From Escherichia coli (GTDB taxonomy: Bacteria > Pseudomonadota > Gammaproteobacteria > Enterobacterales > Enterobacteriaceae), in assembly GCF_030013205.1 (NCBI RefSeq), contig NZ_CP122648.1: a DNA stretch of 64,000 nt; one strand, written 5' to 3'. The notes under the pieces are model-generated. The model made no database searches and had not been told where the DNA came from. It saw nothing but the letters and a program-made list of their open reading frames with translations. Below are positions 24,663 to 26,068 of the stretch, piece by piece (positions within the stretch are counted from its first letter, which is position 1; the number at the start of each line of letters is the position of its first letter). The position numbers were made by a program, and so were the translations under genes.

Positions 24663-25676
24663 TTAAAATAGCATTTGAGTCAAATAGCCCATCAAGATAG
24701 CCATACCTAATATAACCGTCAGGAATGCAACTATCATCGGTATTCTGAACATTGATTTAAGTAATATCACTTCCGTCAGACTTGCGCCGGCACTGCCGAT
24801 GATTAATGCCATTAATGCCCCCAGACCCATGCCTTTCGTCATCAGAACTGATGCCAGAGGGATAACCGCCTCTGCCCGGATATATAGCGGAATACCGACA
24901 ACGGCGCTCAATGGGATGGCGAAGGGATTATCTGCCCCTGCATGAGCGGCAATCCACTCTGAGGGAATAAAGCCATAAATAAAAGAGCCTATTAATACCC
25001 CTAACAAAAGATATGGCAGTACATCTTTAAACTGTTGCAACGCATCTTTGGTGGCTAGTTTTATGGGATTAATACTTACCACAGCTTTGGTACTGCAACA
25101 GTTTACTACAGGTTTCTCAATGGCTTTAGCCGCTGGACTACAGCAACTCACTTTTATTGGCGTATATGTCGTCCCCGGCGAAGTTTTGGCTGGAGCACAA
25201 CAATTTGCTGATGAGCTTTTACTGGCAATGATATGACGTTCAAATCCCAGGGAATCCAGGATAATACTGGCAAGTACGGAGACGCCGGCGGCGATAATCG
25301 CGTACAACAAGGTAACTTTCCAGCCAAAGGTCACCCACATTAACCCGACGATAATGGGATTAAGTAATGGGGAAACAAATAAAAAAGTGAGGGTCGGACC
25401 GAACCCGGCTTTCGCTGACAACAATCCACGTAACATTGGGATTGTCGAGCAACTACAGAACGGGGTAACGGCTCCCAACAGAGCCGCCAGGAGATAGCCT
25501 CTCCCTTTTCTGGCCCCCATCATCTGCCGGATTTTATGGTCTGGCACCTTTTGTCTTATCAGGCTCACACCGGCACTAATCACTATAAACAGCAAAGAAA
25601 GCTCAACGGCGAGAAACACAAACATCTCTGCGGCATCTTGCAGCATCGCAAGCCAACTACTCATACGTAACCTCAT
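24663..25676 (-). CDS. ArsP-like (DUF318) permease with a TPFCSCS motif and a Cys-dyad-rich loop
   Basis: 337 aa polytopic ORF containing GAVTPFCSCSTIP and a central loop with three CC dyads (NCCAP…VSCCSP…VNCCST). Confidence 0.65.
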   Translation of the reverse strand: MRLRMSSWLAMLQDAAEMFVFLAVELSLLFIVISAGVSLIRQKVPDHKIRQMMGARKGRGYLLAALLGAVTPFCSCSTIPMLRGLLSAKAGFGPTLTFLFVSPLLNPIIVGLMWVTFGWKVTLLYAIIAAGVSVLASIILDSLGFERHIIASKSSSANCCAPAKTSPGTTYTPIKVSCCSPAAKAIEKPVVNCCSTKAVVSINPIKLATKDALQQFKDVLPYLLLGVLIGSFIYGFIPSEWIAAHAGADNPFAIPLSAVVGIPLYIRAEAVIPLASVLMTKGMGLGALMALIIGSAGASLTEVILLKSMFRIPMIVAFLTVILGMAILMGYLTQMLF

Positions 25677-25687
25677 TGAATAAATCT

Positions 25688-25746
25688 ATATTTCCAGAAT
25701 AATCGAAATGAAATTCAGATCAAGATATTTCTGGTATTATCGAAAT
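25688..25746. promoter_or_regulatory. two operator-like imperfect palindromes in the divergent promoter between the permease and the small ArsR-like gene
   Basis: atatttccagaataatcgaaat (25688-25709) and atatttctggtattatcgaaat (25725-25746): 18 of 22 identical, each with atttc…gaaat inverted arms. Confidence 0.45.
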
Positions 25747-25771
25747 ATCAACCAGACAAAGGGGGTGTCAT

Positions 25772-26068
25772 ATGCAGTTGGAAGAAGTTGCTAAAGCGCT
25801 GAAAGAGCTAGGTCACCCGAGCCGTTTGTTCATATTCAAACACCTGGTCAAAGCGGGGGAACAAGGTTTGCCCGTCGGTGAGTTGCAAAAGCAGCTTGGG
25901 ATACCCGGCTCTACACTCAGTCACCATATTTCAGCACTGGTATCGGTAGGGCTGGTCAAACAAAACCGTGAGAGTCGAACGCTGATGTGTGTTTCGCAAT
26001 ACGCAATGCTGGAAGCGATAATTGAATTCTTACGCGAGGAGTGCTGCGTAAATAGCAAAATTGCCTGA
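25772..26068 (+). CDS. ArsR/SmtB-family winged-helix regulator
   Basis: 98 aa ORF with an ArsR-type HTH (GSTLSHHISALVSVGLV) and a C-terminal CC dyad. Confidence 0.65.
   Translation: MQLEEVAKALKELGHPSRLFIFKHLVKAGEQGLPVGELQKQLGIPGSTLSHHISALVSVGLVKQNRESRTLMCVSQYAMLEAIIEFLREECCVNSKIA

Follow-up and report, generated by a model that had tools for sequence, protein, structure and literature searches.

The window, a 64,000-nucleotide stretch of Escherichia coli DNA, contains an arsRBC operon (26191-28326, minus strand; arsC 26191-26616, arsB 26629-27918, arsR 27973-28326) and, beside arsC, a divergent pair of genes encoding a permease and a regulator. The operon is convergent with the regulator gene and forms a separate transcription unit; the permease gene adjoins arsRBC but sits in its own divergent unit, outside the operon. 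The longest permease reading frame (24663-25676, minus strand) encodes 337 amino acids, the length given in an earlier reading of the letters alone (the sequence-only reading). The true start, however, is most likely the ATG at 25664 (M5 of that frame), which has a GAGG Shine-Dalgarno sequence 7 nt upstream, matches the MNSW start of the orthologues, and is also the start chosen by PGAP. We therefore place the gene at 24663-25664 (minus strand; 333 aa plus stop), which makes the spacer to the regulator gene 107 bp, not the 95 bp first reported. The regulator gene (25772-26068, plus strand) encodes a 98-aa protein of the ArsR/SmtB winged-helix repressor family, as had been proposed. It matches the NCBIfam model HTH_metalloreg for ArsR/SmtB metalloregulators (NF033788) with 59.8 bits against a cut-off of 55, and also the Pfam models HTH_20 (E 1e-13) and HTH_5 (E 2.8e-6). 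Both genes are under purifying selection, with Ka/Ks values of 0.11 for the permease (compared with a plasmid copy) and 0.03 for the regulator.

The spacer holds two palindromes of the form ATTTC-N10-GAAAT, at 25690-25709 and 25727-25746, which together constitute a 37-nt tandem duplication. These are the sole matches to this pattern in the 64-kb window, where 0.16 would be expected; two matches were reached by 1 of 100 shuffles. The permease-proximal box (operator box 2, 25688-25709, ATTTCCAGAATAATCGAAAT) overlaps TATTCT, which from a reading of the minus strand we predict to be a -10-like element of the permease promoter. The regulator-proximal box (operator box 1, 25724-25749, GATATTTC-N10-GAAATATC) is a perfect 8-10-8 palindrome and includes TGGTATTAT, a predicted extended -10-like element for the regulator gene. 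Both palindromes are invariant in six lineages (E. coli, a second E. coli locus, two plasmid copies, Citrobacter, and Aeromonas), even though synonymous sites across these lineages are saturated (Ks >1). Among 84 loci, drawn from about 80 species, 79 carry the motif upstream of the permease, usually in two copies, and it is kept there even when no regulator gene is adjacent. The near-identical operator-like repeats of the sequence-only reading are thus borne out by comparison across genomes, as a conserved putative operator linked to the permease.

The permease matches Pfam ArsP_1 (PF03773) with 178.4 bits against a cut-off of 32.3, residues 13-334 covering profile positions 3-293/294, so that its earlier assignment to the ArsP type agrees with the profile search. 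Members of the ArsP family consist of two homologous halves, each of several helices, with a variable hydrophilic loop between them (PMC7176098), and the family has been described as carrying C(S/T)C within a membrane helix (PMC4435449). The AlphaFold2 (AF2) model of the permease (pLDDT 85.8) shows two similar series of helices with a disordered loop at residues 152-192 between them. The TPFCSCS sequence (codons 25446-25466, minus strand; residues 67-73 of the 333-aa protein) lies in the second membrane helix, is unchanged across 66 aligned orthologues, and coincides with a helix break at residues 67-70 in the model. Together, PF03773 membership, the C(S/T)C motif, and the two-half architecture place the permease in the broadly defined ArsP family (TC 2.A.119). 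The motif had been taken as a sign of organoarsenical exporters, a specificity it does not have: CxC occurs family-wide, CSC being shared by the permease, the SO_0444 Cu/Zn exporters, and SaoE, and "tPF-CSC" marks one of two ArsP clusters only (PMC4435449). Membership in the SaoE family (NF040736) was rejected (84.1 bits against a cut-off of 325), and no curated model for the Campylobacter jejuni ArsP was found in NCBIfam.

That protein (TC 2.A.119.1.1) shares with the permease, at the level of a family comparison, PF03773, a C(S/T)C motif in a membrane helix, and two halves joined by a variable loop, as well as a genetic association with ars genes and an ArsR-type regulator. C. jejuni ArsP is reported to export MAs(III) and Rox(III) and not As(III). 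In contrast to C. jejuni ArsP, the E. coli permease is encoded outside an ars operon, in a divergent unit with a dedicated regulator, and has a Cys-rich loop. This hydrophilic loop (25068-25247, minus strand; about residues 140-199) carries three CC dyads (ANCCA, VSCCS, and VNCCS), as the sequence-only reading had noted, and has pLDDT <50 at residues 152-192 of the AF2 model. The dyads are not conserved in the clade, since the loop is hypervariable in length and many orthologues have a loop of 44 aa with a single CxxxC; we therefore rejected the three dyads as a defining functional feature. The metallochaperone ArsD has vicinal Cys pairs at C12-C13, C112-C113, and C119-C120. The permease loop resembles it in that CC dyads recur along a flexible stretch, a pattern typical of As(III)/Sb(III) binding, although the two are not homologous and the dyads here lie in the transporter's own loop and are dispensable in many orthologues.

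Three cysteines of the regulator, C73, C91, and C92, are invariant in all of the approximately 60 orthologues examined. C73 (codon 25988-25990) is where the wing strand ends, just ahead of helix alpha5. The C91-C92 pair (codons 26042-26047) stands six residues before the C terminus (EECCVNSKIA), near the end rather than at it as first described. The best solved relative of the regulator is AfArsR of Acidithiobacillus ferrooxidans (PDB 6J05, E 1e-9), with 90 residues aligned without gaps, and the HMMER alignment sets ENCC of AfArsR (C95/C96) against EECC of the regulator (C91/C92). Cys95 and Cys96 are As(III) ligands in AfArsR (PMC11868830), where they form the type 2 site with Cys102. The enteric regulators differ in having no equivalent of Cys102, six to seven residues past the pair, and AfArsR has Tyr at the position of C73. 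A third Cys after the pair is present in only some Vibrio and Shewanella orthologues, in the form CC-x4-C in Vibrio. Judged by alignment, then, the regulator has the vicinal pair of a type 2 ArsR and lacks its third ligand; with no Cys downstream of the pair, the invariant C73 is a possible third ligand. The sequence alignment shows none of the other site types in the regulator: the alpha3 CVC and His/Asp alpha5 sites are both absent, as is an alpha2 Cys. The segment corresponding to the alpha3 site of type 1 ArsR proteins (Cys32-x-Cys34-x2-Cys37) reads GLPVGELQ, whereas the neighboring arsR has ELCVCDLC.

Two further regulators bear on this site. SpArsR of Shewanella putrefaciens 200, compared here by its description, likewise has an AfArsR-type vicinal pair and no downstream third Cys; the E. 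coli regulator differs in having the extra invariant C73, which could complete a three-coordinate site. SpArsR reportedly controls arsP, encoding an ArsP-family permease, and arsH, in work attributed to Chen and colleagues in 2017. Unlike that system, the E. coli locus has no arsH, and the arsH family is not one of the 25 gene families most often found beside the orthologous pairs. With its CC pair only, SpArsR is reported to be selective for MAs(III). ArArsR of Arsenicibacter rosenii, an ArsR type described recently (Cys41/Cys80/Cys82), resembles the regulator in combining cysteines of the wing/beta-sheet region with a conserved C-terminal CC, and differs from it in having an N-terminal Cys. 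Because single C107S or C108S mutations left the arsenic response of ArArsR intact, a conserved C-terminal CC pair is no proof of function.

The pair occurs in 2223 of 5426 complete E. coli genomes (~41%). K-12 has neither gene in its ars region, as the sequence-only reading had suggested, and keeps only a decayed remnant of the regulator gene. The segment corresponding to 24392-25998 is missing from K-12-like, O157:H7, and MS20674 chromosomes, all of which retain a decayed copy of 25999-26068, the last ~20 codons of the regulator. Because this scar holds the 3' remnant of the regulator gene, the pair must be ancestral at the site, its loss being due to one old deletion; a recent insertion beside arsC was rejected on the strength of the shared scar. 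The pair may thus be called an accessory module for its distribution but not for its origin.

Beyond E. coli, the regulator, operator, and permease travel together across about 80 species, with regulator orthologues directly adjacent in about 55. At about 70 of the 84 loci no ars gene lies within 6 kb; arsA, arsD, acr3, and arsC are among the genes found near orthologous loci. Permease relatives at 52-58% identity lie inside arsDA/acr3 operons, and the closest non-enteric relative, in Craterilacuibacter (58% identity), stands in the order arsR-arsD-arsA-permease-acr3. In Endozoicomonas the order is acr3-arsD-arsA-permease-regulator. The Shewanella profunda regulator gene is co-oriented with genes for an ArsC of the low-molecular-weight (LMW) phosphatase type and an ArsR, and arsDAB lies 2 kb away. 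In E. coli, Citrobacter, and Buttiauxella the pair is an immediate neighbor of arsRBC or arsRDABC, the ars operon of Buttiauxella being on the other side of the pair. The association with ars genes, inside or beside ars operons, is independent in at least four lineages.

Close copies are also carried by about 1000 plasmids, mostly conjugative, of Escherichia, Salmonella, Klebsiella, and Citrobacter, often as neighbors of antibiotic-resistance genes; among the plasmid copies listed, many are from livestock or retail meat isolates. Copies lie beside Tn3-family, IS26, and ISL3 elements, and one setting is a prophage. This mobility on transposable elements and plasmids fits a resistance determinant. 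We also asked whether a Tn3-family transposon carries the pair as a passenger: a search for flanking inverted repeats found none, and the adjoining tnpA-tnpR is Tn2/Tn3-like and common to thousands of plasmids. By its sequence context, the plasmid copy is adjacent to a Tn3-type remnant, and its status as cargo is not supported. The literature searched yielded no experiments on the clade of the cassette, only information at the level of the family, and the public names of its members are all generic.

On balance, the pair is probably a self-contained resistance cassette in which a repressor controls its own gene and that of an efflux permease. The compound expelled would be a thiophilic toxicant, and most likely a trivalent (organo)arsenical. 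A dimer of the 98-aa regulator would bind the two palindromes, of 20-26 bp, with consensus ATTTCGAtaat..t.GAAAT and centers 37 bp apart. Since both divergent promoters have a -10-like element overlapped by a palindrome, the bound regulator would repress both the permease gene and its own. A thiophilic inducer would release the repressor by binding C91/C92, at the C-terminal end of alpha5, together with C73 at the junction of wing and alpha5, the C73 ligand probably coming from the other subunit. The permease would then export the inducer through a substrate site around the CSC motif at the membrane helix break, and the Cys-rich loop, probably cytoplasmic, may be an optional built-in capture or chaperone segment. 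In this scheme we infer that the regulator represses, which inducer it answers to, which way the permease transports, on which side of the membrane the loop lies, and what C73 does.

A trivalent arsenical is suggested as inducer and substrate by the CC site, which resembles that of AfArsR, and by the ars operons in which relatives are placed. Methylarsenite or an aromatic As(III) compound such as reduced roxarsone would be the most likely candidates, with As(III) or Sb(III) as further possibilities. Since an As(III) sensor and pump are already encoded beside it in E. coli, the cassette would have to owe any benefit to a different substrate range; it would complement the neighboring ArsB, which handles inorganic As(III)/Sb(III).

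In a competing reading, the toxicant would be a soft metal ion, for example Cd(II), Zn(II), Cu(I), Hg(II), Pb(II), or Ag(I), sensed and pumped out in the manner of SO_0444, with the regulator cysteines forming a CmtR-like thiolate site and the loop acting like a metallothionein. SO_0444/Shew_3410 (NF033936) shares with the cassette PF03773, the CSC motif, and the arrangement as a standalone module of regulator and permease. The SO_0444 Cu/Zn efflux model is also the best-scoring curated NCBIfam model for the permease, mutants in SO_0444 and Shew_3410 are sensitive to Zn and Cu, and an SO_0444-family gene of Nitratiruptor is induced by Cd and Cu. The CC and CxxxC motifs of the loop, the lack of ars genes at most loci, and the many livestock or retail meat isolates among the listed plasmid copies would fit as well; copper and zinc are widespread feed supplements. 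Membership in the SO_0444 family was nonetheless rejected, because the permease scores 107.7 bits, about a third of the curated equivalog cut-off of 300, and eight relatives score 94-129 bits. The control of SO_0444 is of the MerR/ZntR type and not the ArsR type, and the nearest solved relative of the regulator is an As(III) sensor with its ligands aligned. Moreover, the 25 commonest families of 144 neighboring genes include no czc, cop, znt, or mer, whereas arsA, arsD, acr3, and arsC do occur nearby. We consider a soft metal substrate unlikely.

Rather more doubtful is a reading in which the regulator, like YgaV, BigR, SqrR, and HlyU, would sense redox state or reactive sulfur/electrophiles by forming a di- or polysulfide between its cysteines, and the permease would move a sulfur compound or thiol conjugate in place of a metal(loid). 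Among solved relatives of the regulator, YgaV (E 1.6e-7) and BigR (E 4.4e-7) rank second and third, and the C-terminal Cys of YgaV aligns with C92 of the regulator. Neighboring genes offer some further encouragement: distant PF03773 genes pair with thioredoxin-family proteins, glutathione synthetase adjoins the permease in three loci, TauE occurs in two, and an ECF sigma factor stands alongside the regulator in 11. Yet the alpha2 Cys that defines BigR, SqrR, and YgaV is missing (the regulator segment reads RLFIFKHL), the BigR model gives 38 bits against a cut-off of 155, and no rhodanese, SQR, or persulfide dioxygenase is found in the commonest neighbor families. The ars-operon contexts would also be left unexplained.

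Least probable of all, and very much so, is that the permease is an importer or carrier of an ordinary metabolite whose adjacency to arsRBC is an accident of an insertion/deletion hotspot: the annotation of PF03773 as merely a "predicted permease", the unrelated neighbors at most loci, and the REP elements on the flanks of the E. coli site would allow it, but the three invariant cysteines of a metalloregulator and the membrane CSC favor a thiophilic ligand, the repeated mobilization on resistance plasmids and transposable elements fits resistance, and the ars association is seen independently in several lineages.

The arsenical efflux cassette can be extended into a bolder reading, which we regard as possible and put forward tentatively. 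The regulator would represent a new type of ArsR sensor, combining an inter-subunit Cys at the wing and the N-terminal end of alpha5 with the alpha5 CC pair. The cassette would be a widespread, unrecognized mobile resistance determinant, given its presence in about 41% of E. coli genomes and on about 1000 plasmids, many with antibiotic-resistance genes. It would act on an organoarsenical from animal production, or else on a thiophilic toxicant not foreseen here, and in both cases would be a hidden marker of co-selection for antibiotic resistance; PF03773 proteins would be small elevator-type relatives of ArsB/DASS rather than members of the TOG superfamily.

Although E. coli serves as the reference organism in work on arsenic resistance, its reference strain, K-12, has the cassette deleted. 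This is why the cassette has escaped study, although it is present in about two in five sequenced E. coli. If the cassette exports methylarsenite or reduced roxarsone-type feed additives, the arsenic resistome of enterobacteria would be widened from inorganic to organic arsenicals, and differences among strains in arsenical tolerance would be explained. Organoarsenical export would also point to a way in which arsenical use might co-select for antibiotic-resistance plasmids. The regulator and its operator form a compact and sharply defined pair, which could become a part for biosensors.

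We consider it highly likely that the divergent permease and regulator genes form a repressor-controlled efflux cassette, given their divergent arrangement, operators that would cover both promoters and let the repressor regulate its own expression, and the pairing of a putative thiol-based sensor with what would be a thiol-lined transporter. The pair lies on the E. coli chromosome in the order chuA-chuS-dctR-slp-yhiS-like, pair, arsC-arsB-arsR-dinQ-gor, and the 2.1 kb queried around it (24100-26200) is 100% identical to strain ETEC1748. Read as ORFs, the permease frame (24663-25676, minus strand) encodes 337 aa and the regulator gene (25772-26068, plus strand) 98 aa. 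Translation of the permease very probably begins with codon five, the ATG at 25664, for a product of 333 aa: all orthologues start at the aligned position, a GAGG precedes this ATG by 7 nt, and PGAP also selected it. RefSeq calls the products "permease" and "ArsR/SmtB family transcription factor", and the public names of both proteins and of their plasmid versions are all equally generic. The neighboring yhiS-like gene (22859-24082, minus strand) is here an intact ORF of 407 aa that matches nothing in Pfam or NCBIfam; the gene at this position in ETEC1748 is a frameshifted pseudogene according to PGAP, and that of K-12 is interrupted by IS5. Between the regulator stop and arsC (26069-26190) lies a REP/BIME-like element (GCCTGATGCGCTACGC...GTAGGTCGGATAAGACGCG...GCATCCGAC) part of which also matches elsewhere in E. 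coli chromosomes.

Of 5426 complete E. coli genomes, 2223 carry the pair when query coverage of at least 80% is required. The sequence-only reading had taken it to be absent from the K-12 ars region, and this was borne out: K-12-like strains lack 24392-25998, and of the regulator they retain a decayed version of the final ~20 codons (window 25999-26068 against 5377-5450 of fetched locus L002, alignment A6: MLDAIIGISRREYCVNSKIA vs MLEAIIEFLREECCVNSKIA). Since O157:H7 and strain MS20674 carry the identical scar, the pair is ancestral at the arsC-adjacent site and was lost through one old deletion allele. Copies with 75-80% identity occur on ~1000 plasmids of Escherichia, Salmonella, Citrobacter, and Klebsiella, most of them conjugative, where they adjoin Tn3-type, IS26, and IS1 elements and resistance genes. 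A more distant subgroup (47-52% identity), with near-identical regulators in six loci, has an ISL3-family transposase directly downstream of the permease on a Salmonella IncHI2 plasmid and in Acinetobacter and Shewanella (pair plus transposase at L005 5566-8316 and at L088 and L095 5569-8319; pair only at L068, L073, and L085). This arrangement suggests that the pair travels as a passenger on a mobile unit; the fetched DNA of the Pseudomonas, Salinicola, and Nitrincola subgroup copies held no adjacent transposase. In Citrobacter, the pair and arsRDABC lie inside a lambdoid prophage. In some E. coli a second copy, diverged from the first, lies elsewhere on the chromosome (L013-L015, 5599-6999), with 74% permease and 82-85% regulator identity and the same two operators, flanked by a DUF2776 gene and an old-yellow-enzyme gene. 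Purifying selection on both genes of the pair is strong (Ka/Ks 0.11 for the permease and 0.03 for the regulator).

The two operator-like palindromes proposed for the spacer are present there and conserved across lineages and species. ATTTC-N10-GAAAT matches twice in the 64 kb (chance expectation 0.16), both times in the spacer, at 25690-25709 (box 2, permease-proximal) and 25727-25746 (box 1, regulator-proximal, a perfect 8-10-8 palindrome); the two boxes constitute a 37-nt tandem duplication. In an alignment of six lineages (the window locus, the second E. coli locus, two plasmid copies, Citrobacter, and Aeromonas), both boxes are nearly invariant and the intervening and surrounding sequence is variable. 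Synonymous sites of the flanking genes are saturated (Ks 1.0-1.5 against a plasmid copy, not computable against the others), so the boxes are under selection. With one mismatch tolerated in the arms, 79 of 84 loci from ~80 species have the motif (consensus ATTTCGAtaat..t.GAAAT) in the 400 bp upstream of the permease, usually in two copies. Among the 79 are loci whose regulator gene lies kilobases away or is missing from the fetched DNA. In Vibrio, some copies form perfect palindromes of 20 bp. Box 1 holds TGGTATTAT, a putative extended -10-like element facing the regulator gene, and box 2 overlaps TATTCT, 16 nt past a conserved TTGATC, a candidate promoter facing the permease gene. A promoter consensus scan returned other, weak candidates.

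Profile searches placed both proteins in the families first assigned to them: the permease scores 178 bits with Pfam ArsP_1 (PF03773; cut-off 32), and the regulator 59.8 bits with an NCBIfam metalloregulator model (cut-off 55). The permease motif TPFCSCS, read at first as a mark of organoarsenical exporters, is invariant among aligned orthologues but is a hallmark of the entire PF03773 family, including the SO_0444 Cu/Zn exporters and SaoE. Two ArsP clusters are found in ars operons, and "tPF-CSC" is the mark of one of them (PMC4435449). Membership of the clade in SO_0444 (108-129 bits, cut-off 300) or SaoE (84-108 bits, cut-off 325) was rejected. No PDB chain related to the permease by sequence was found. 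In the AF2 model, which has high confidence (pLDDT 85.8, pTM 0.81), TPFC falls at a break of the second membrane helix. The central loop does carry three CC dyads, which recall the vicinal cysteine pairs of the ArsD metallochaperone, but it is hypervariable in length and sequence and is cut to 44 residues with one CxxxC in many marine orthologues. It is predicted to be disordered (pLDDT <50, residues 152-192) and is an optional elaboration. If helices 88-113 and 281-302 are re-entrant hairpins, the side bearing loop 1 and the central loop has a Lys+Arg count of 15.3, versus 3.1 for the opposite side, which would make the Cys-rich loop cytoplasmic.

The regulator lacks the His/Asp alpha5 site of SmtB/CzrA and, by sequence comparison, both the alpha3 CVC site of the neighboring canonical ArsR and the alpha2 Cys of BigR/SqrR/YgaV. 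C73, at the end of the wing strand directly before alpha5, and the C91/C92 pair are invariant in all ~60 extracted orthologues. The SmtB/CzrA fold has inter-subunit alpha5 sites, and manual mapping onto it suggests that C73 could come near C91/C92 of the partner subunit. The best solved relative is AfArsR (PDB 6J05, E 1e-9), and in the gap-free alignment of the two its ENCC falls opposite EECC of the regulator. AfArsR Cys95 and Cys96 are two of its three As(III) ligands, and SpArsR, with this Cys pair alone, responds to methylarsenite and not arsenite (PMC11868830). AfArsR Cys102 has no equivalent in the E. coli regulator. In ArArsR, single substitution of either Cys in the conserved C-terminal pair left sensing intact, a caution against reading the conserved pair as the sensing site.

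The substrate is less certain than the anatomy. We lean toward a trivalent arsenical, based on the AfArsR ligand alignment and the ars-operon contexts of relatives. The closest non-enteric relative, in Craterilacuibacter (58% identity), lies within arsR-arsD-arsA-permease-acr3, and the Endozoicomonas order is acr3-arsD-arsA-permease-regulator. In Shewanella profunda, genes for an LMW-phosphatase ArsC and an ArsR have the same orientation as the regulator gene, with arsDAB nearby. Three enteric genera have the pair directly next to ars operons, in two different arrangements, and an ars operon lies within 6 kb at 7 of ~80 species-level loci, against a roughly estimated random expectation well below 1%. 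Among arsenicals we favor organoarsenicals, with As(III) or Sb(III) also possible, because the ars operons around relatives already contain Acr3 or ArsB for inorganic As(III), and because C. jejuni ArsP exports MAs(III) and Rox(III) and not As(III).

Most loci have no ars gene nearby, which counts against the arsenical reading, and the best-scoring curated permease model is a Cu/Zn exporter; a soft metal cation as substrate seems unlikely to us. That the pair answers to a redox or sulfur signal is quite improbable, and any other explanation still more so. Other neighbors were also observed. An ECF-type sigma-70 gene (~199 aa; e.g., L044 4886-5485) adjoins the regulator orthologue in 11 Vibrio and Pseudoalteromonas loci (L023, L033, L044, L045, L046, L053, L059, L063, L065, L072, and L094), immediately downstream and co-oriented in the ten Vibrio loci, and a Citrobacter plasmid (L006) has an ECF sigma gene upstream of a distant PF03773 and thioredoxin pair. 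Three loci of marine gammaproteobacteria (L041 7188-8621, L039 9716-11116, and L075 3475-4869) have a eukaryotic-type glutathione synthetase gene (PF03917/PF03199) next to the permease or close to it, which hints at a link of the transporter to glutathione supply or conjugates. A standalone PF03773 gene, possibly of another clade, BN5_1279 of Pseudomonas pseudoalcaligenes, lies outside the ars clusters of that species and is reported to be arsenite-induced at the protein and mRNA levels (PMC10138600).

Pairs of an ArsR-family repressor and an ArsP-family permease are of a known kind, and the literature and databases searched yielded no characterization, name, or discussion of the clade of the window pair. 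The invariant C73 beside the type 2 CC pair, together with the Cys-rich loop, could make the pair a variant rather than a plain member. What makes it interesting is mostly how common it is in E. coli and on resistance plasmids, and how readily it could be tested.
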